From Gemmatimonadaceae bacterium (GTDB lineage Bacteria > Gemmatimonadota > Gemmatimonadetes > Gemmatimonadales > Gemmatimonadaceae), in the NCBI GenBank assembly GCA_052389995.1, contig JBQTHJ010000040.1, positions 9,491 to 73,490 on the forward strand: a stretch of 64,000 bases of DNA, read 5' to 3'. Of this stretch, positions 8,627 through 39,735 are shown piece after piece; the stretch's first letter is position 1, and each line of letters starts with the position of its first letter. The translations under genes and the position numbers were made by a program. Under the pieces are notes generated by a model. It searched no databases, was not told where the DNA came from, and was given only the letters and a program-made list of their open reading frames with translations.

Positions 8627-9819
8627 CGCTGAGATCGACTGCGGCCGGCCGAGCCAGTCCGCGGCGCCGCAGGTCTGCCAACGCCATGGCACGCGAGAGT
8701 GGAGATTCGTACTTGACCGAGTACGCTCCCCCGCGGATCTCGGGGGAACTCGCCGAGTTTACCGCGGAGGGCATCACCGGCGAGATCGGGGGCGCGTTGG
8801 AGCGCGCGATCCTCCGCGTCCGCGAGTCATGGGACACGGGCCAGGACGGCTCGAGCCCGGAAGACTTGCGCATGCGCCTCGCGTGCCTGTGCAAGGCCAT
8901 CCGCCAGACGTTCGTCGGTGAAGAGCCGGAGCTCACCGAGATCGCGCCCCCGGTGCCCGGGCGTCGGATGCTCGAGAGCGTACGGTCCGGGTTCATCGCC
9001 GAGATGGAATCGGTGGAGTCACCGGACCCGCAGCTGCTGATTCACGTGCTGGGCACGATAGAGCGTGTACAGACCGCGCTCGACCGCGACAGCGCGCAGC
9101 GCTTCGCGAACAAGCTGAGCGGGCCCGACGGCCTCGACATGGTGGTCGAGGTCGCACACGACCTGCGATCGCCGCTCGCGTCGATTCTCTTCCTCGCGGA
9201 AACACTTCGCAAGGGACAGAGCGGCGCGATCAATCCCATCCAGGAGCGGCAGCTTGGCCTCGTCTACAGCGCCGCGTTTGGTCTGAGCGCACTGGCGAGC
9301 GATGTCATCGAGCTGGTGCGTGGCGGCGAGCGTCTCATGGATCTGCATCCCTCGCCGTTCTCGGTGGCCGAGACGCTCCAGGCGGTACGGGACATCGTGC
9401 TGCCGATCGCAGAGGAGAAGGGGCTGAGGGTTCGCGCCACGCCTCCCGACACGGATCTGCGCATCGGTCATCCGATGGCTCTCAACCGCGTGCTGCTGAA
9501 CCTCACCACGAACGCGCTCAAGTTCACCTCGGAAGGGCAGGTGGAGGTCACCTGCCGCCCGCTGACGAAGACGCTCCTCGAGTTCTCGGTGAAGGACACC
9601 GGGCGCGGCATTCCCAACGAGGTGCTTCCGACGCTGTTCGACGCGTTCCGCCGTCGCGTGAAGCCCGGCCAATACACCTTCTCCAGCGCCGGTCTCGGAC
9701 TCTCCATCTGCCGGAAGCTGGTCTCGCGGATGGGCGGCGAGATGAAGGTGGAGACGGCGCCCGGCTACGGGACGCGCTTCCACTTCGAGCTGGAGCTCCC
9801 GGTCGCGACACGCCTGTAG
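8623..9819 (+). CDS. Sensor histidine kinase, apparently soluble (HisKA + HATPase_c)
   Basis: H-box VAHDLRSPLASI. N-box LLNLTTNALKF. G-boxes DTGRGI and GLGLSICRKLV. No obvious TM segment. The GTG at 8623 overlaps the upstream stop (GTGA). An alternative ATG lies at 8686. Confidence 0.85.
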   Translation: MTLRSTAAGRASPRRRRSANAMARESGDSYLTEYAPPRISGELAEFTAEGITGEIGGALERAILRVRESWDTGQDGSSPEDLRMRLACLCKAIRQTFVGEEPELTEIAPPVPGRRMLESVRSGFIAEMESVESPDPQLLIHVLGTIERVQTALDRDSAQRFANKLSGPDGLDMVVEVAHDLRSPLASILFLAETLRKGQSGAINPIQERQLGLVYSAAFGLSALASDVIELVRGGERLMDLHPSPFSVAETLQAVRDIVLPIAEEKGLRVRATPPDTDLRIGHPMALNRVLLNLTTNALKFTSEGQVEVTCRPLTKTLLEFSVKDTGRGIPNEVLPTLFDAFRRRVKPGQYTFSSAGLGLSICRKLVSRMGGEMKVETAPGYGTRFHFELELPVATRL

Positions 9820-32396: not shown

Positions 32397-33782
32397 TCAG
32401 CGTTGACGAAAGCGCTCCGGCGTTGACGTGTCCATGGCGAGATCGAGCTCGAGCCGAGTGGCGCCGTCGTCCGCAACGGCGCCCAGCGTGAATGCGCCGT
32501 AACTGATCAGCTCGATCGTGGCCGTACCATTCGCATCGACGGCCTCGGAGATGACATCCGGCCGAAACGTAGGGTGCAGGTGGAACGTCACCGTGCCCTT
32601 TAAGGGATGCTCGGGATCCGTAGACCTGACCGACACCGTGACCGCGAACCAGTCCGGATCACCTGCTATCTCGCTCACTACCGGAGTCACGCGCCGTCGA
32701 TTTCGCTCCGGAACCCCACCGAACTGACCCTTGTGAGGATCCTCGGGACACGGGAGTGGCTCGATGACTGGCAACGCGGGCTCCGCGGTGTGAGCGGACG
32801 GGGGTGCGTCCCTGACTTTCCGCGCGGGCTGCGTCGCTTCGGCCGTGGCAGTCGCGAACTCCTCCTCTGGCACGTTCCGTCCCGAGCGTCGCAGCAGCTC
32901 GTTCATGAGTAGTCGAAGCCGTTCGTGCTTGTTCGTCTTATCGTAGAAGATCGCCTCGATCCCGAATTTCGTTCGGAGGCGACGGCGGTCGACCTCACGC
33001 TCCTCGCCGGCATGCATGCCGATGAACGCGAAGTGCCGCGGTGACTGAAAGCCTAACGCGCCGGTCACCTGCCGCAGAATCGCCATCAAGTCGGGATCGG
33101 AGAGCGAGAATCCGAAGATCACGATGCGCTGCATCGCGAAAATGGCGAAGAGCTTTCGAACCGCGGCGTCGGAGCGAAGATACCGCTTCGCATAGTCGCG
33201 GTCGGTGAGCACGATCGAGGGCGGATCACTGATGCATCCGTGCAGGTAGATCAGATACCGCTCCGGCTCGTGCTCGAGAAAGCTGAACATCAACCGGAGC
33301 ACCGCCTCGTCGTCGGCCCAGTTCACGCACTTGGGTGCTGGAAGACCCAGGCGGTGGTGCGTTATCTCGAGCGCCTCGTCGTAGTTGGTGGTCAGGATGT
33401 GGCGGAATGGGAGCCGGACGAGCGCATCGAGAACGGGATCTGTTCCCGGAGCCGCGCCGAATGCCTCGGTGAGCATCGCGAAGTATTCCGTTTCGCCCAG
33501 GCGGTCACGGTATTCCTCTCCCCGCCAGAGAACGTCGTCGAACCGCTTGAGATTGGACGGCAGATGCTGCGTCGTGCCTTTGTGTGTCGAGTCGACCTTC
33601 TCGCGTACGCGTGACAAGCGCTGTTCCATCGCTTCCAGCAGGCTATCCCAGCCCGGATAGCCGACGCGGGCACTGAACCCGGCGCCGACGAGCGCCACGG
33701 CCTTTCCGCCGGCGACGCAGGTTGCGAGATGGCTGAACGCCTCGACGTCGCGCTCGTTGACGAGCAGGTCGGCAAGAACCAT
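32397..33782 (-). CDS. SIR2-like (SIR2_2 family) NADase-type domain fused to a C-terminal pYEATS-like domain
   Basis: The ATG at 33782 overlaps the upstream stop (TGATG). VALVGAGFS, ILTTNYDEALE and YLHGCISDP are SIR2_2 hallmarks, followed by FGFSLSDPDL. The last roughly 115 aa (DPHKGQFGG...VTFHLHPTF...GAFTLGAV...RLELDL) match my memory of the prokaryotic YEATS domain. Confidence 0.85.
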   Translation of the reverse strand: MVLADLLVNERDVEAFSHLATCVAGGKAVALVGAGFSARVGYPGWDSLLEAMEQRLSRVREKVDSTHKGTTQHLPSNLKRFDDVLWRGEEYRDRLGETEYFAMLTEAFGAAPGTDPVLDALVRLPFRHILTTNYDEALEITHHRLGLPAPKCVNWADDEAVLRLMFSFLEHEPERYLIYLHGCISDPPSIVLTDRDYAKRYLRSDAAVRKLFAIFAMQRIVIFGFSLSDPDLMAILRQVTGALGFQSPRHFAFIGMHAGEEREVDRRRLRTKFGIEAIFYDKTNKHERLRLLMNELLRRSGRNVPEEEFATATAEATQPARKVRDAPPSAHTAEPALPVIEPLPCPEDPHKGQFGGVPERNRRRVTPVVSEIAGDPDWFAVTVSVRSTDPEHPLKGTVTFHLHPTFRPDVISEAVDANGTATIELISYGAFTLGAVADDGATRLELDLAMDTSTPERFRQR

Positions 33783-34900
33783 CAGCGGAGCGCCTCGCAC
33801 AGCCGGTCCATCGCCCCCATCACTCGCCGCGTCAGGCTCGGAGTGCGGCGGGGCCCGGCCACAGGGGCCACGTTGGGCGGGAGCCCGAACTCGTCGGACC
33901 GGATCGCATCGAACACGAGTCCCACGTGGACGTAACGTGTGTCGTCCAGGAAGCCGAGGTTGTAGTAATCCATGCCCTGGTAATAGCGAACGAACAGTCC
34001 CCAACCGCCGAGGCGCTGCAATGTCTGCGAGAGATCGGCGGTGAAGGTCCACGGTGAGAGGTGTGGAGCTACCGTACGGAGGTACTCCACCTGCCCGCCG
34101 ACCGACATGCGGCCGTTGAGCCAACTCGTGCGAAACGATCTCCAGGAAGCATCCGCCCCGGAGAAGATGCGCATCGTCGGGTACAGGGCCTTCTGTTCGT
34201 TGGGGATCGTTCCGGGGCCGAACGGCTGCGGATTGCCCTCGACACCTAACGTGAACGTGCACATCTGATTGGCGCGGAGCTGCTGGTCCGGGTCGAGGTC
34301 GTCGAGGCGCATGTGGCGATACGAGGTCCAGACGCGGAAGTAGTTCGTCGAGAAGGTGCCATTGATCTTGTTCGTGGTGCGACGCGTCCCCGGCGGCAGC
34401 ACGCCGTCCGAGCAATTCCCCTCGGCGTCCATCGTTTGATCTGTGTAGAGACACCCCTCCTGACCGTTCGAATGGTGCCCCCACGGAATGACGTTCAGCG
34501 CCGCGACGCGAATGGGGCTATCGAGCCGGAGCGAGGGGTCGACCAGGCTCGCCCAGAAAAGCTGGAGGTTGAACTTCGGCATGAACGACGGTGTCCGCAC
34601 CGGATTCGACCGGGTGCTGAACATCCGCAGCCTGACCATCGGCGTGAACGAGAATGACCACGACCGCGCGGCGAAGTCCGGCCCCTCGTAGATCTCGCCC
34701 GCATTCTGATACAGCCCCTGCCGGAAGAAAAGATGCGGCGCGAGATGGGCCTCGAAGAGCAAGTCGTCGGAGGGGAAGCGATGGAAGATGTAGGAGCGCT
34801 CGAGGAAAACCGGCGAATTGCGGTTGTCGACATCCTGCGCGGCGGCGATGGCGGCCGAGGCGAGCGCGGCGGCGAGTGCGATGGGGAAGCGCAGCATCAT
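33782..34900 (-). CDS. Secreted outer-membrane phospholipase A1 (OMPLA/PldA)-like beta-barrel protein
   Basis: ATGATG at 34900 with GGAGG upstream. Signal peptide MMLRFPIALAAALASAAIAAAQD. WGHHSNGQEG resembles the OMPLA H-x-S-N-G catalytic motif. A downstream STNYFRV Asn candidate is present. Alternating beta-strand pattern with an aromatic-rich C-terminus. Confidence 0.7.
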   Translation of the reverse strand: MMLRFPIALAAALASAAIAAAQDVDNRNSPVFLERSYIFHRFPSDDLLFEAHLAPHLFFRQGLYQNAGEIYEGPDFAARSWSFSFTPMVRLRMFSTRSNPVRTPSFMPKFNLQLFWASLVDPSLRLDSPIRVAALNVIPWGHHSNGQEGCLYTDQTMDAEGNCSDGVLPPGTRRTTNKINGTFSTNYFRVWTSYRHMRLDDLDPDQQLRANQMCTFTLGVEGNPQPFGPGTIPNEQKALYPTMRIFSGADASWRSFRTSWLNGRMSVGGQVEYLRTVAPHLSPWTFTADLSQTLQRLGGWGLFVRYYQGMDYYNLGFLDDTRYVHVGLVFDAIRSDEFGLPPNVAPVAGPRRTPSLTRRVMGAMDRLCEALR

Positions 34901-35205
34901 CCGCCTCCGGGGGTTACCGCCACCACGTTTGGGACGGGTGCAGCGGGACGAAATGCCCCGTAGATCGGATCGCTCTCGGAGTGCAACGAGAAGACGTAGA
35001 ACATCCGCCCTGCATACTGCGCCGCGACGAGCTGCAAGCGGTCGTTGATCTCCACGAACTGTTTCTGAGAAATCTTGCTGGCGCGAAGCGTCTGATTCGT
35101 CAGCGTCTCGAGCTTCTGCGCCGGAAAGCAGTCCGCGATCGCGATCAGGATGCTCGGCAGCGCCGGATCGTTGGTCGCGACGTCCCACGAGAGAAGTGCG
35201 CGCAT
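34897..35205 (-). CDS. Orphan 102-aa protein, no recognisable domain
   Basis: The ATG at 35205 lies 5 nt after the MBL stop, and its own stop overlaps the next start (ATGA). No TM or signal peptide. Sequence MRALLSWDVATNDPALPSILIAIADCFPAQKLETL... Confidence 0.6.
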   Translation of the reverse strand: MRALLSWDVATNDPALPSILIAIADCFPAQKLETLTNQTLRASKISQKQFVEINDRLQLVAAQYAGRMFYVFSLHSESDPIYGAFRPAAPVPNVVAVTPGGG

Positions 35206-35210
35206 GTCCG

Positions 35211-36374
35211 CTAGTCCGTGAGCGGGTCGCCGAGATCCACGCGCAACGACCGCGCATTGTCGGCGCGATAGACCGGCCGCACCTTCCGCCCCGCTTGCTG
35301 CTCGCTGCGCAGTACCGCATCGACCTTGGGCAGCTTGTTCGTCATGTACACGCTGTAGGGTTTGTCGTCGTCGGCGCGTGCCTCGCACAGCATCGTGAGC
35401 GTCGGGACGTCGGGATTCCCATGCTCGCCGTTCGCGGAGATGACGTAGTGATCGGCGGTGATGATGCGGAAGAATTCCGTCGACACGTTTCGGTCGCTGC
35501 CGTGGTGGGGCACCTTGAGGATGTCGACGTGCAGCCGCTCGCCCTTGAGCACCTTCGTTCGCCGGACTGCTTTCAGGATGTCGTCGCCGCGGGCGTCACC
35601 CGTCAGTAGCATCGTTCGACCGTCAGCCTCGGCCACCACGACGATGCTCGACAGGTTGTAGACGGAATCATCGAGAAACGCCGCCGCGAGCTGCTGCAAC
35701 TCCGCTCCCTTCGGCTTCTTTTTCTTCTTGAGCGTCGCCTTCCAGTCCGCCTCGAGCTTGTCCAGCCGCTCCTCGTTCGGACCGAGGATGGTGAAGGTCA
35801 GTCCGTCGCCGAGCTTGACGGTCTTCTTTCCTTTGGCCGGTGAGGAGACCAGGCCCTTGAATGGGCGATTGACATCGAGGTCGAGTCTCGCACTGTTGTC
35901 GCGAAGCCTCCGGCCCTGCGGGACGCTCGCCGCCAGCGCCGCGGTAGGCTCATCGAGGCCTAACGCGGATACGCCTCCGTCGGCACTCGCCGCCGCCGTT
36001 GCCACCGCGTCGAACGCGGCGCCCTGGGCCTTCGCCTTCCTCATGATGTCGTCGAAGCTGTTGTGCCAGAGCGTATCGATGTCGAAGGGCATCTCCTCGC
36101 CATCTTCCTCGAGCTCGAGCAGGTAGTCGGTGAGGCCGAGGATGCCGTTGATGTGGTCGTCATCGATGTGGCTGACCATCACCATGCGGATCGCGAGCGG
36201 ATCCTCCGGGGAGCGTTTCGCTTTCAGCTGCTCGAGCCGCGGTCGGAGGCTGTTCGCCCAGACCTTCGCCGGGCCGCCATCGATGACGATGAGACGCGGA
36301 TCGTCCGGCTTGCCGTAGTGGAGGAGCAGAGAGTCGCCGTGTCGCGCTTCCAATGCTTCGAGTGTGAAGAGCAT
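35211..36374 (-). CDS. ComEC/Rec2-type metallo-beta-lactamase-fold hydrolase (putative nuclease)
   Basis: Start at the internal ATG 36374 (MLFTLEALEARHGDSLLLHYG). IVIDGG. Metal motif VSHIDDDHINGI (HxDxDH variant). LKVPHHGSDRN and VISANGEHGNPD as in the ComEC MBL domain. Lys-run LKKKKKPKG. Confidence 0.85.
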   Translation of the reverse strand: MLFTLEALEARHGDSLLLHYGKPDDPRLIVIDGGPAKVWANSLRPRLEQLKAKRSPEDPLAIRMVMVSHIDDDHINGILGLTDYLLELEEDGEEMPFDIDTLWHNSFDDIMRKAKAQGAAFDAVATAAASADGGVSALGLDEPTAALAASVPQGRRLRDNSARLDLDVNRPFKGLVSSPAKGKKTVKLGDGLTFTILGPNEERLDKLEADWKATLKKKKKPKGAELQQLAAAFLDDSVYNLSSIVVVAEADGRTMLLTGDARGDDILKAVRRTKVLKGERLHVDILKVPHHGSDRNVSTEFFRIITADHYVISANGEHGNPDVPTLTMLCEARADDDKPYSVYMTNKLPKVDAVLRSEQQAGRKVRPVYRADNARSLRVDLGDPLTD

Positions 36375-36427
36375 GACGTCATACTCGCAAAGAAGGCGGA
36401 GCGTCGGGTTGGCTCGTCGTCGAGCCG

Positions 36428-38482
36428 TTACACCGATTGTAGCGCGCGCAGGATGTCGACCATGCCGTAGCCTTGAAAGTCGCGCTCGCGGCCGAGGTCC
36501 GTCGCGGACGTGCAGAGGATTTCCTTGATGCGTCGCGGATTGCCGAGGAGCTCGCGGTGGCGCGCGAGCAGGAGCGCGACGGCGCCGCTCACGTGTGGCG
36601 CGGCCATGCTGGTACCGTCCTTCGTCTTCGATCCATTTCCAGGGATCGGCCCCAGGATCTTCTCGCCGGGTGCAACGAGGTCTGGCTTTCGGCGGCCGTC
36701 GCCCGTGGGGCCCCGGCTCGAGAAGTAGCTCACGCCGTACGTGTGGGGCTGATACCGGTGCGTCGCACCAACCGTGATGACGTTCTCGGCGTTCCCCGGA
36801 TCCTGGATGCTGATGGCCGCGTAGCCTTCCGCCGCGCCGCCGGCGGGAGTGGCGTAGTAGATGTACCCCTTGTTGCCTGCGGCAGCGACGACGACGACCC
36901 CCGTGCCGATGACGCGCTCCGATTCGTCGCACACCGGCGTTCGGCCGCACGCGTAGTTCGCTTTGTCGTGCGGGATCGCGAGGCTCATGTTGACGCCATG
37001 AATCAACGGCTGCTCGCGGTGCGCGTTGAGGTGTCGGATGAACTGGAGCGCCGCCATGATCGTGAACTCGTTCCCGCGGCCTTCGTCGTCGAGCACGCGA
37101 AGGTCGTAGAGATTGATGTCGGGACAGACGCCGACGAGGTCGTGCTCGCCGGGATGATGCCGGTCTCCCGGCTCCCAGTCGAACATGCGCCAGTCGGCGG
37201 CGAGGATGCCCGCGACATGCGTCCCGTGCTCGTGCCGTGGCGATTCGTACTCGGCCACCGCATGGGGGATCTCGATGAATGGCTTGATGGCGTCCCAGTC
37301 GATCGAGCGACCCGTCCGAAGGCTCCTGCGGAGTTGCCTGCCCTGGCGGCGCACGTTCGGGTCGGCCGATCTGAATTTCGCCCAGAAGGCGAGATCGCGC
37401 TGCCACCGCGCTGCACGCGGGTCGCTAGGCTTCGCCGTGAGGTCGGCCTTGAGCTTCCTGATGACGAGGCGAAGCTCGTCGTTGTCGGTGTTCAGGAGCT
37501 GACGGATTCGCGTGAAGTCGTAGGTCGCCCGGACCCGCGTGTGCGCGGGCCACTCGGCGTCCGCCTCTTGCGCCGTCAGCTTACGCCCGGCCGCACCGTC
37601 GGTCTTGAGGCGCGGCTTTTCTCGGTCGTCGCGCTTCCAGAATGCGGGGTGGCGCGCGTCGATCCCGCTGTCGAGGATCGCCCAGGAAATGTTGGAACAA
37701 TCGAGCTTGAACACGCGCTGGGCCGCGTCGGATTTGACAGCGAGCGTCGACCGCCAGACCGCGGTGGTTGCCGCCCGGTCGTGACTCACCAGCCACACGC
37801 GGGCCTTCTCGTCCCGGAGCGGCTCGTGCATCAGCGTCGCGAACGCCGCGACGAGCGCCTCCTCGTCGTCATTGAGCTTGTCGAAGGCTTGTTTCGCGAG
37901 CGGTTCCGTGGCCGGCTCCTTCACCTCGCCGGCGAGCAGGATCGTCCCGACGAGGTGAATCATCCAGAGGAGATCCGCTGACACCGGCGGCGTCTCGGGA
38001 CGTACGACCTGCCCCTTCTGCGCGGCTTCGATCGACGTCGCCAACTCTCGCTGCACTTCCGGGCGCGTGAAGGCGCGGGGCAGGTCGGCCGCTGGCTCGT
38101 ACCGAACGTGGTCGTGCCACCACTTGCTCATCGGCAGCACCACGCGAACGAGCTCGTCGAAGTGAAGGCGCGCGGCGACCGCCGCCTGATTGTAGGCGAT
38201 GTCGGCGGCGACGCTCCCATTCGGATGCCGCTGCTTCCACGGGATCGTCTTCCGCTCGGCGTTGAGTCTGAGCCGAAGCGCCATGCCCAGCTCAGCCGGC
38301 GTGTAACCGCGATGCGGCGTGAGGAGTAGATCGCGCGGCTCATCCGGACCGCGGTCGGGATCCGTGTACTGGAGCCCGAACTCGATCCACACGTCCGGAA
38401 GTACGGGCGAGTCCTGGGTGAACCGGCGAGCTGCGTCCTTTCCGAAGATCAGCTCCTCGAGCCACGGTCGCCGGAGTCTCAT
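36428..38482 (-). CDS. Cytoplasmic S8 (subtilisin-family) serine peptidase with novel N-terminal region
   Basis: Catalytic D in WAILDSGID, H in HEHGTHVAGI, S in DGTSMAAPHVSGAVALL. No signal peptide. About 250 aa N-terminal region without a recognisable domain. By my count about 150 residues separate D and H. The start overlaps the patatin stop (ATGA). Confidence 0.9.
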   Translation of the reverse strand: MRLRRPWLEELIFGKDAARRFTQDSPVLPDVWIEFGLQYTDPDRGPDEPRDLLLTPHRGYTPAELGMALRLRLNAERKTIPWKQRHPNGSVAADIAYNQAAVAARLHFDELVRVVLPMSKWWHDHVRYEPAADLPRAFTRPEVQRELATSIEAAQKGQVVRPETPPVSADLLWMIHLVGTILLAGEVKEPATEPLAKQAFDKLNDDEEALVAAFATLMHEPLRDEKARVWLVSHDRAATTAVWRSTLAVKSDAAQRVFKLDCSNISWAILDSGIDARHPAFWKRDDREKPRLKTDGAAGRKLTAQEADAEWPAHTRVRATYDFTRIRQLLNTDNDELRLVIRKLKADLTAKPSDPRAARWQRDLAFWAKFRSADPNVRRQGRQLRRSLRTGRSIDWDAIKPFIEIPHAVAEYESPRHEHGTHVAGILAADWRMFDWEPGDRHHPGEHDLVGVCPDINLYDLRVLDDEGRGNEFTIMAALQFIRHLNAHREQPLIHGVNMSLAIPHDKANYACGRTPVCDESERVIGTGVVVVAAAGNKGYIYYATPAGGAAEGYAAISIQDPGNAENVITVGATHRYQPHTYGVSYFSSRGPTGDGRRKPDLVAPGEKILGPIPGNGSKTKDGTSMAAPHVSGAVALLLARHRELLGNPRRIKEILCTSATDLGRERDFQGYGMVDILRALQSV

Positions 38483-39735
38483 AGCCGGATCTTCCGTTTG
38501 TTGCTGTCCTTGAGCGCGTCCCTGACCTTTTTCTCATCCAACCAGTCAGGGTGGGGAGGCCGCAGCTCGGGCGCCGGTACTGGCATCAGGGGACTCACGT
38601 GTCGCCGGACGGCGACGTCGGCGAGGAAGTACCCGTGGTTCTCGAGGACGGCGCGCTCTCCGTCGGAGAAGGTGTCGAGATCGGTGCGAATGTTGGCGAT
38701 CAGGTCTCGCGCGACTTCCTTGGAGTATCCCTGCGAGTCGTTCGGGATGTAGCGCGATCGTGCGCTGCTCACGGCCCAGTACGTTCCATCCATCACGGGC
38801 CGCGACGTCGCCGGATCCGTGGTCGAGAAGCTCGCAATGAGCCATCGCCGCCGCAGGGCGCGCGCCTGATTCTGCACGATGTCGGCGTACCGGAAGATCC
38901 GCGACTTGAGTCCGCGATCGGGAGTAAACTCGAAGGGGCCGCCGCCGTCCGAGACGAGAACGATCTCGTGACGCTTCCACACCGGCTCGAGGCCCATGTT
39001 GTCGTAGTTCCCGCCGTCGGTGAGGCGGAGGCCGGCGACACACTTCTTGCGCAGATCGCGATCGGTGCACTTGCCGTTCTTGAAGTCGCGCTCGTGGAAC
39101 TTCGTGCGCAGCGGGTTGAAGAGCGGCGGAAAGCACGCAGACGCCGCGGCGGCGCGGCCGGCGGGGTAATCGTCAGGCGGCGGTGCCTGGTAGCCCACCT
39201 GGTAGTCGCCCATCCGCTGACGCTCGAAGACCCAGTTGACGCCGAAGGCCATGTCGGTCGCGCAGAAGACGAAGTTGGGCGCGGCCGGCAGCTCGGGGAG
39301 CGTGAGCTTCGACGTGCTCTTCTCGAGCAGGGTCGCCATGTGGTCGACGATCTCGCGACCACGGAGGATGTTCAGCGGGTTGATGCGGCGGCGGAGAAGC
39401 TTTCCGCGAAAGTTGCTCGCCGTTAGGTCGTCGGTGGGCTTGGCGACCTGTGCATCGAAGTCGGGGAATGGCCGAGTGAGCGAGCCGCCAAGCTTTCGAA
39501 TCGCATCGGCGAGTACGAGCGCCATGAGGCTTCCGCCGGAGACGGAGCTGATCGTCCGCACGCGATGCAGGACGCCGAGCTCGTTGAGCCGCCGGAGGGC
39601 ACCGAGGTGGAAGAGTGTGGCGCGGAACCCGCCGCCGGAGAGACAGAGGCCGATGCCCTGTCGACGACGTTCGGGAAGGTACGAGTCGGACTCGGCGGCC
39701 TCCGCAGCAGCGGCCGGCGTCAGTGCGGTCGACAT
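38479..39735 (-). CDS. Patatin-like phospholipase
   Basis: Oxyanion hole LSGGGFRA, nucleophile elbow SVSGGS, catalytic Asp in LTDGGNYDN. 418 aa, no signal peptide. Confidence 0.9.
   Translation of the reverse strand: MSTALTPAAAAEAAESDSYLPERRRQGIGLCLSGGGFRATLFHLGALRRLNELGVLHRVRTISSVSGGSLMALVLADAIRKLGGSLTRPFPDFDAQVAKPTDDLTASNFRGKLLRRRINPLNILRGREIVDHMATLLEKSTSKLTLPELPAAPNFVFCATDMAFGVNWVFERQRMGDYQVGYQAPPPDDYPAGRAAAASACFPPLFNPLRTKFHERDFKNGKCTDRDLRKKCVAGLRLTDGGNYDNMGLEPVWKRHEIVLVSDGGGPFEFTPDRGLKSRIFRYADIVQNQARALRRRWLIASFSTTDPATSRPVMDGTYWAVSSARSRYIPNDSQGYSKEVARDLIANIRTDLDTFSDGERAVLENHGYFLADVAVRRHVSPLMPVPAPELRPPHPDWLDEKKVRDALKDSNKRKIRL

Follow-up and report, generated by a model that had tools for sequence, protein, structure and literature searches.

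Do six tightly packed genes for degradative enzymes form one immune system, or have parts with separate histories come to share an operon? The question is raised by a block of six minus-strand genes at positions 32397-39735 of a 64,000-nucleotide (nt) stretch of Gemmatimonadaceae bacterium DNA (assembly GCA_052389995.1, contig JBQTHJ010000040.1, forward-strand positions 9,491 to 73,490). The whole stretch is called the window here, and coordinates refer to it unless the label of another locus (L and a number) precedes them. The block encodes a patatin, an S8 subtilase (S8), a metallo-beta-lactamase-type hydrolase (MBL), a small protein, an OMPLA-like barrel and a SIR2-pYEATS protein. The original prediction, made from the sequence alone, had read the block as a single conflict or defence system of stacked degradative enzymes. 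The analysis supports a defence locus of such enzymes, and identifies the block as a mosaic, not a unitary six-gene system. Its most probable reading (roughly 0.6) is a protease-gated abortive-infection system, with an S8-MBL core and optional patatin and SIR2-pYEATS accessories, plus an unrelated inserted cassette formed by the small protein and the barrel.

The patatin gene (38479-39735, 418 amino acids, aa), the S8 gene (36428-38482), the MBL gene (35211-36374, 387 aa), the small-protein gene (34897-35205, 102 aa), the barrel gene (33782-34900, 372 aa, secreted product) and the SIR2-pYEATS gene (32397-33782, 461 aa) follow one another on the minus strand, and neighbours either overlap or sit 5 or 53 nt apart. 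The patatin stop and S8 start share an ATGA, as do the stop of the 102-aa gene and the start of the barrel gene; the barrel stop and SIR2 start share a TGATG. The S8-MBL spacer measures 53 nt, and 5 nt separate the MBL TAG from the ATG of the 102-aa gene. This head-to-tail layout, with every junction first described and with pirin and xthA as flanking genes, was confirmed in the sequence. All of the catalytic motifs reported with it are present, and homologues of S8, MBL, patatin and SIR2 keep these residues. Profile searches upheld the domain calls for patatin, Peptidase_S8, SIR2_2 and pYEATS and gave no support to PLA1; the MBL call falls below threshold in Pfam and is strong in PADLOC and NCBIfam.

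The S8 protease and the MBL are the core of the block, and the MBL is the obligate partner of the protease because of adjacency, co-variation and fusion. A scan for the MBL family yielded 80 metagenome loci, 70 of which could be judged for the gene upstream. A full-length S8, N-terminal 260 residues included, lies immediately upstream of MBL in 69 of these 70. Pairwise distances of the two proteins correlate across 46 non-redundant loci (Mantel r = 0.87). The two are also found in a single chain: the 1107-aa protein P0433 joins an MBL, the S8 N-terminal domain and the S8 catalytic domain in an order opposite to that of the operon, and its MBL part is 43% identical to the window MBL. S8-MBL pairs are further carried by plasmids of cultured Rhizobium, Sinorhizobium, Methylorubrum, Miltoncostaea and Paroceanicella, most of them typed as conjugative. 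Where the MBL had been counted as one more independent effector, this evidence makes it the partner, and a likely substrate, of the S8 protease. L127:3131-4108 is the sole MBL locus of the 70 without an upstream S8 match, and the preceding stretch that was tried is rich in stop codons.

The S8 catalytic domain (36428..37696, minus strand) is matched by Pfam Peptidase_S8 (3e-40, above the gathering score) and by the PADLOC 'subtilase' model (1.3e-42). Its catalytic residues D271, H419 and S625 are conserved in at least 90% of 52 homologues, and an insertion of ~150 aa between the catalytic Asp and His is poorly conserved. Ahead of it stands a family-specific domain of 262 aa (37697..38482, minus strand) for which Pfam returned no match. 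This domain was found in 635 representative clusters, nearly always at the N terminus, and many of the other matches are fragments. Pfam placed an S8 domain C-terminal to it in all eight proteins checked, with no alternative architecture among them. Full-length tblastn matches retain it, and the aligned homologues show conserved motifs within it. Since it is the sole invariant non-catalytic part and is exclusive to this protease family, it is the candidate sensor or regulatory part of the protein.

The MBL itself lies below the Pfam threshold (Lactamase_B, 1e-3), and its full length is matched by the PADLOC models for the LmuA hydrolase (3.8e-57), Avs1a (1e-37) and the reverse transcriptase (RT)-associated MBL (2e-32). 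The NCBIfam Avs1a model gives 9.7e-48 and 163 bits, against an equivalog cut-off of 420 bits. The HxDxDH motif, D260 and the HHGSD motif are invariant in the homologue alignment. An AlphaFold model (predicted TM score, pTM, 0.87) has among its best PDB folds the ComEC beta-lactamase-like domain (target TM 0.71) and Pce. The protein is thus a ComEC-type hydrolase and a predicted latent DNase.

Two variable insertions are candidates for the gating of this enzyme. Residues 118-140 (35955..36023, minus strand) form a disordered, hypervariable loop with a predicted local distance difference test score (pLDDT) below 50, which may be the first gating or cleavage loop. Residues 201-241 (35652..35774, minus strand) form a helical insertion of lower confidence (pLDDT 65-76) that is a candidate second gating region; it includes a variable stretch rich in Lys, and the alignment varies most at 213-228. 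The first position corresponds to Ile133 of VcMBL and Ile134 of EpiAvs1a, where those proteins are cleaved, and the second to their other cleavage sites, Ile232 and Ile234 respectively (PMC12642450, PMC12799240). Avs- and Hachiman-linked MBLs are zymogens: once a partner trypsin-like protease has cut them in two flexible loops, one near residue 133 and one near residue 232, they act as Zn-dependent double-stranded DNA nucleases (PMC12642450; PMC12799240). In canu, a caspase activates an MBL nuclease likewise (PMC12642450; PMC12799240). Evans et al., in the passages that mention a third, subtilisin-linked MBL clade, note it bioinformatically and without further study (PMC12642450). Given these known zymogens and the candidate insertions at equivalent positions, we infer that S8 activates the MBL by cleavage.

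Patatin is the commonest recurrent neighbour of the core. All-against-all clustering of flanking open reading frames (ORFs) found it at 14 loci, always on the same strand, and revealed no recurrent neighbours apart from lipases across the 80 MBL loci. Patatin homologues with 32-38% identity lie directly upstream of S8 in 5 of 33 metagenome loci and directly downstream of MBL in 5 of 46; others accompany S8-MBL on the S. meliloti M270 (WP_234896393.1, WP_088199121.1 and WP_088199122.1 for patatin, S8 and MBL) and Paroceanicella plasmids, and one adjoins a caspase-MBL (canu-like) locus. The window protein is matched by Pfam Patatin (8.7e-17, above the gathering score), and its GGGxR, SxSxG and DGG motifs are conserved across 15 homologues. 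Tle1-like (DUF2235, PF09994) phospholipase genes also adjoin S8-MBL (L182:7133-8440, L124:9325-10638, L139, L155 and L181:12857-13209). Such a gene directly follows MBL in loci other than those that carry patatin, and Tle1-like enzymes seem to stand in for patatin there as the lipase add-on. Most S8-MBL loci contain neither patatin nor SIR2-pYEATS, and patatin is a recurrent but optional accessory of the core. On the A. tumefaciens plasmid pAtH25_79a (L188:4962-9617), a patatin is followed by a 629-aa protein without a Pfam domain, a 533-aa MBL and then a Hachiman-like DUF1837/helicase pair; the 629-aa protein may represent an unrecognised protease class.

The SIR2-pYEATS protein is the second accessory and is likewise recurrent but optional. 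It combines a SIR2_2 NADase-type domain (32853..33782, minus strand; Pfam SIR2_2 1.7e-22, PADLOC ThsA 4.4e-20) with a pYEATS domain (32439..32648, minus strand; Pfam pYEATS 2e-12), and both Pfam matches exceed the gathering score. The SIR2 motifs GAGxS, TTNYD (N133) and LHG (H181) are invariant among 22 homologues. The pYEATS domain is preceded by a hypervariable Ala/Pro-rich linker and then by a conserved D-D/E-P-x-K-G-x-F/W-G-G motif, in which D348 and G355 are invariant and P349, K351 and G356 are conserved at 90% or more.

The S8-MBL core has SIR2 and/or pYEATS proteins as neighbours in at least four lineages, the clade of the window among them. At L175, an intact SIR2-pYEATS protein (50% identity) follows S8-MBL across a TGATG junction, with no cassette between them. 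A decayed copy directly follows patatin-S8-MBL in the L168 lineage (L168:8302-8868, L169-L171 and L088:5506-5625): an internal deletion has removed the catalytic core and left the N-terminal 40 residues abutting the C-terminal part, and an in-frame stop lies within the DPxKGxFGG motif. In this lineage the accessory has been lost and the core kept. A plasmid of R. leguminosarum RCAM2802 (CP050566.1, 66.5-73.1 kb) carries the order FRG-pYEATS, S8, MBL, SIR2_2, and on pCMU01 of M. extorquens a SIR2-pYEATS gene converges on another S8-MBL pair.

The association extends to other proteases. Eight plasmid records match pYEATS, and six of them have a protease adjacent to it; three protease classes (S8, CHAT and caspase) are represented. 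pYEATS proteins are coupled to CHAT or caspase proteases at L172:991-8308, L178:2798-7296 and L180:3249-6348. The arrangements there are a 2005-aa DUF7379/LCAT/CHAT/TPR-S protein overlapping SIR2-pYEATS; a CHAT protein followed by SIR2-pYEATS and then a NucA-type nuclease; and a caspase gene overlapping the gene of a 652-aa pYEATS protein. This suggests that pYEATS is a protease-associated domain in general. A limited literature search on pYEATS, including its protease association, found no paper. A protein of ~255 aa beside SIR2-pYEATS at three loci was considered as a recurrent partner and discarded as coincidence, the proteins being unrelated.

On this basis, the following mechanism is proposed. 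If the homology with HamMAB, Avs1/Avs2-MBL and canu is a guide, the MBL would be made as an inactive pro-nuclease whose two flexible insertions block the active site. An infection cue would activate S8, with the N-terminal domain of the protease or an accessory protein as the presumed sensor. S8 would then clip the insertions, and the resulting Zn-dependent DNase would destroy cellular and phage DNA. Patatin and SIR2-pYEATS, either licensed by S8 or firing in parallel, would deliver second and third hits on membrane lipids and NAD+. The small protein, possibly Cas2-like, and the secreted barrel would have no part in this, as an unrelated cassette lodged between MBL and SIR2 in close relatives only. 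Inspection of the N termini revealed no evident signal peptide on patatin, S8, MBL or SIR2, and of the six products only the barrel shows one. This is consistent with action of the first four inside the cell.

A broader version of the mechanism, which we hold only tentatively and think rather unlikely, would make S8 a licensing hub, a single sensor-protease that without any NTPase arms as many as three unrelated effectors from a latent state (the DNase of the MBL, a lipase of patatin or Tle1-like type and the SIR2 NADase), with pYEATS as a protease-coupling or autoinhibitory module common to S8, CHAT and caspase systems across phyla. Its counterpart, which is also improbable, is that the block is a miniature defence island, in which three or four self-sufficient modules (S8-MBL, patatin, SIR2-pYEATS, and the small protein with the barrel) are merely adjacent and co-transcribed, S8 acts on MBL only, and patatin and SIR2-pYEATS would each do their own sensing and firing. 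Independence of the accessories is favoured by their stand-alone occurrences: SIR2-pYEATS is found without a nearby protease in L173 and L174, and a patatin homologue in Deinococcus lies amid SAVED genes together with an AAA ATPase. The scarcity of both accessories at S8-MBL loci points the same way, and clustering of defence genes is known. A link between the accessories and S8 is favoured by the ATGA and TGATG coupling that joins accessories to the core in the window and in L175, by the finding of same-strand patatin genes on either side of the core among unrelated lineages, by the recurrence of SIR2 and pYEATS beside S8-MBL in Gemmatimonadota and Alphaproteobacteria with their domains shuffled, and by the adjacency of pYEATS to three protease classes.

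Several points weigh against the preferred reading of a protease-gated system with optional accessories. The stand-alone occurrences just described are among them, and the adjacency of the accessories could reflect defence-island clustering. The co-variation of S8 and MBL could in part be their common organismal phylogeny. The MBL scores far under the Avs1a equivalog cut-off, and the trypsin clade has neither the protease-first gene order nor a protease free of any fused known sensor. For the S8-linked MBL, cleavage, activity as a DNase and defence against phage are extrapolated from trypsin- and caspase-linked relatives. Finally, the remainder of the window consists of housekeeping genes, with no large defence island around the block.

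That all six genes form one integrated, undescribed system is very unlikely, and the comparison of synteny among relatives largely refutes it. In its favour, all six genes are translationally coupled, three close relatives with 83-88% identity (L001/L006, L002 and L007) keep all of them beside xthA, and an OMPLA-like lipase would suit a theme of stacked degradative effectors. However, only relatives above ~83% identity keep the six genes in one syntenic block. L003, which is 77% identical and shares the chromosomal neighbourhood, has only patatin-S8-MBL; the place of the cassette and SIR2 (L003:11228-14838) is taken there by opposite-strand genes, AlkZ-like, RES-toxin and small unknown ones, and the site downstream of MBL looks like a variable spot. 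MBL is joined directly to SIR2 in L175 and in the L168 lineage, while the small protein and barrel occur without S8, MBL, patatin or SIR2 in 26 other loci of varied contexts. The barrel is exported and the remaining products appear cytoplasmic, and the barrel family has no plasmid matches. Because L003 lacks the last three genes, L175 lacks the cassette and the pair stands alone elsewhere, the block is a mosaic. What survives of the single-system claim is the recurrence elsewhere of patatin, S8, MBL and SIR2-pYEATS together. The most economical history has an ancestor with the S8-MBL core, patatin and SIR2-pYEATS, and a later insertion of the cassette between MBL and SIR2 in the clade of the window.

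The small protein and the barrel are a separate conserved two-gene cassette, translationally coupled and widely conserved (L008-L046, L085-L087), because beyond the closest relatives of the window no barrel locus includes S8, MBL, patatin or SIR2. In a scan of 79 genome loci of the barrel family, with the small protein sought by an iterated profile, a homologue of the small protein lies directly upstream of the barrel gene and on the same strand in 29 loci (Gemmatimonadota, Acidobacteriota and others). The 102-aa gene, first described as an orphan, thus belongs to a family. Its product starts with M-Y/R-A-x-L-S-W/Y-D-V. Cas2 (4qr0) headed the PDB profile search with a weak E-value of 0.11, and hhalign aligned the two end to end over 69 columns at 64% probability; the protein is cytoplasmic and possibly has a Cas2-like ferredoxin fold. 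Among the Bacteroidota, barrel homologues (L047-L084, 22-28% identity) lack the small partner, and several of these loci (L051, L054, L055, L062 and L079) have a 149-aa ORF upstream of the barrel instead.

Searches of Pfam, NCBIfam, PADLOC and PHROGs with the small protein and the barrel gave nothing usable, and 286 barrel homologues have no Pfam domain. The HHSNGQxGC motif of the barrel (H142, S144, N145 and G146) is invariant among 29 homologues. AlphaFold gives a confident outer-membrane beta-barrel model (pLDDT 82), for which E. coli OMPLA chains are the top Foldseek PDB matches (E 1e-4, target TM 0.5-0.57). Pfam PLA1 (PF02253) did not match the barrel or the 29 homologues at E-values up to 1. 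A PDB sequence-profile search with the barrel family did not retrieve OMPLA either, which was found by the fold search alone. The name 'OMPLA-like' is therefore fair for fold and motif, not for family membership. The equivalent of the triad Asn is perhaps N186, a putative assignment. At window positions 33782-33920 (barrel residues ~330-372), a C-terminal extension past the barrel has a predicted helix at its end and a conserved Cys (LDxxC); it is present in the window and its Gemmatimonadota relatives and absent from Acidobacteriota members. Two other proposals were rejected. A Pepco-type pore is ruled out by the signal peptide and OMPLA-like fold, and a three-gene unit of small protein, barrel and SIR2 by the direct joining of SIR2 to MBL elsewhere and by the 26 loci with the pair and no SIR2.

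It is scarcely credible that the operon is catabolic or remodels the envelope, serving to scavenge nutrients, turn over lipids or take up DNA: S8 proteases, patatins and OMPLA do have housekeeping relatives, the flanking genes are housekeeping and ComEC-type MBL domains function in DNA uptake, but S8, patatin and MBL have no evident signal peptide, the best profile matches are to defence-system models, SIR2_2 with pYEATS is an immunity-type architecture, presence among close relatives is patchy, and homologues lie on mostly conjugative plasmids beside insertion sequence (IS) elements and IetAS-like, Hachiman, cyclase/TIR and SAVED genes.

The block lies between pirin, an ABC transporter and RibD_C at one end and the genes for xthA and an ankyrin protein at the other; xthA is convergent with the SIR2 gene, with 11 nt between the stops. 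Base composition of the block gave no sign of foreign origin. In a scan for sigma-70 and terminator signals, promoter-like sites were absent and terminator-like sites were fewer than the shuffled expectation, a result that is uninformative for operons in this phylum. Just 3' of the S8 stop, the S8-MBL spacer holds a hairpin (36411-36426, minus strand; GGCTCG-ACGA-CGAGCC) with a 6-bp stem and an ACGA loop. Among four close relatives, L001, L003 and L007 included, double-sided changes occur at two of the six pairs and 95.8% of cells are paired. The hairpin is not present in more distant loci. It has no T-run and is not terminator-like; on this very small sample, it could be an element of RNA processing, stability or translation coupling.

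That bacterial immunity commonly works through proteolytic licensing of latent effectors is a recent finding, with examples so far from trypsin- and caspase-linked modules (PMC12642450; PMC12799240). The block offers a concrete anatomy for a subtilase-linked branch: a stand-alone pair, in which the protease's own N-terminal domain would replace a known sensor. The add-on menu of this branch is swappable and comprises patatin, a Tle1-like lipase, SIR2 and pYEATS proteins. The anatomy of the S8 branch, its lipase and SIR2/pYEATS add-ons and the association of pYEATS with proteases appear to be new. Homologues on plasmids of cultured rhizobia make the model directly testable. Should S8 also arm the lipase and the NADase, the block would be a one-protease, multi-effector death switch, and the pYEATS domain would gain a function.

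Comparison with known systems places the block outside AVAST type 1, Lamassu, Thoeris, DSR, CBASS and IetAS, because in each a defining partner or score was not found. For AVAST type 1, no block protein matches Avs1b or Avs1c, and the neighbours are pirin, the ABC transporter and xthA. For Lamassu, the six operon proteins match LmuA-type effector models only, with no LmuB (SMC-like) or LmuC, and the adjacent genes are pirin, the ABC transporter, xthA and the ankyrin gene. The SIR2 protein matches the PADLOC ThsA, PDC-S25, LmuA and Dsr models and shares the SIR2_2 core and conserved Asn and His with the effectors of Thoeris (ThsA), DSR1/DSR2 and Lamassu-Sir2. Unlike them, it has no SLOG domain, ThsB, long DSR sensor region or LmuB/C, and its C terminus is pYEATS. 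At 461 aa it is also shorter than a DSR protein (>1000 aa); the cut-off of the Dsr1 and Dsr2 models is 1400 bits, and it reaches 21 and 19 bits with them. The block contains no TIR gene. The patatin resembles CapV of CBASS in its fold, its catalytic Ser-Asp dyad and its predicted role as an intracellular lipase effector, whereas its partners are proteases; PADLOC and NCBIfam gave no CapV match for it, and no cyclase lies in the operon or its flanks. The IetS model matches the S8 catalytic domain weakly (7.7e-07), and no ATPase gene is present. The absence of an NTPase, cyclase or STAND sensor from the block, first noted from the sequence, is borne out. Outside defence, the barrel shares with E. 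coli OMPLA (PldA), its best structural match, a signal peptide and the HxSNG motif, and differs in that its identity is 12%, the motif is followed by a Cys-containing insertion of ~30 residues, the C terminus bears a helix, and a small partner gene is obligate upstream.

The closest likenesses are those of the core. Trypsin-MBL pairs (HamMAB, Avs1/Avs2/Avs4, the Lamassu hydrolase-protease and UG9 DRT) contain a homologous MBL (PMC12799240; PMC12642450; PMC9226505), whose two flexible insertions are matched in position by the candidate insertions of the window MBL, and share the strict co-inheritance of protease and nuclease. Their protease is trypsin-like and sensor-fused, whereas that of the window is an S8 without a fused STAND, HamA, LmuA or RT sensor; their MBL is encoded upstream of the protease, and that of the window downstream. 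The canu system (KaeCanABC, Tuck et al., PMC12799240) is alike in being a small stand-alone operon with the protease before a gated MBL nuclease, no fused NTPase sensor and variable extra genes. Its protease is a caspase instead of an S8, and a CanB-like partner was not identified in the block. Clade 3 of Evans et al. (PMC12642450), the subtilisin-associated MBLs, shares with the window an MBL beside an S8 subtilisin-like protease and belongs to the same superfamily as the Avs-associated MBLs. Where the paper treats this clade, it is presented as a defence module; it appears there as a tree branch only, and those passages mention no patatin, Tle1-like, SIR2 or pYEATS accessories. The composition had been called undescribed, and for its centre this no longer holds: by common definition, not common sequence, and as far as the published description of the clade extends, the S8-MBL core fits the class of protease-activated MBL pro-nucleases (PMC12799240; PMC12642450), in its subtilisin-linked clade.

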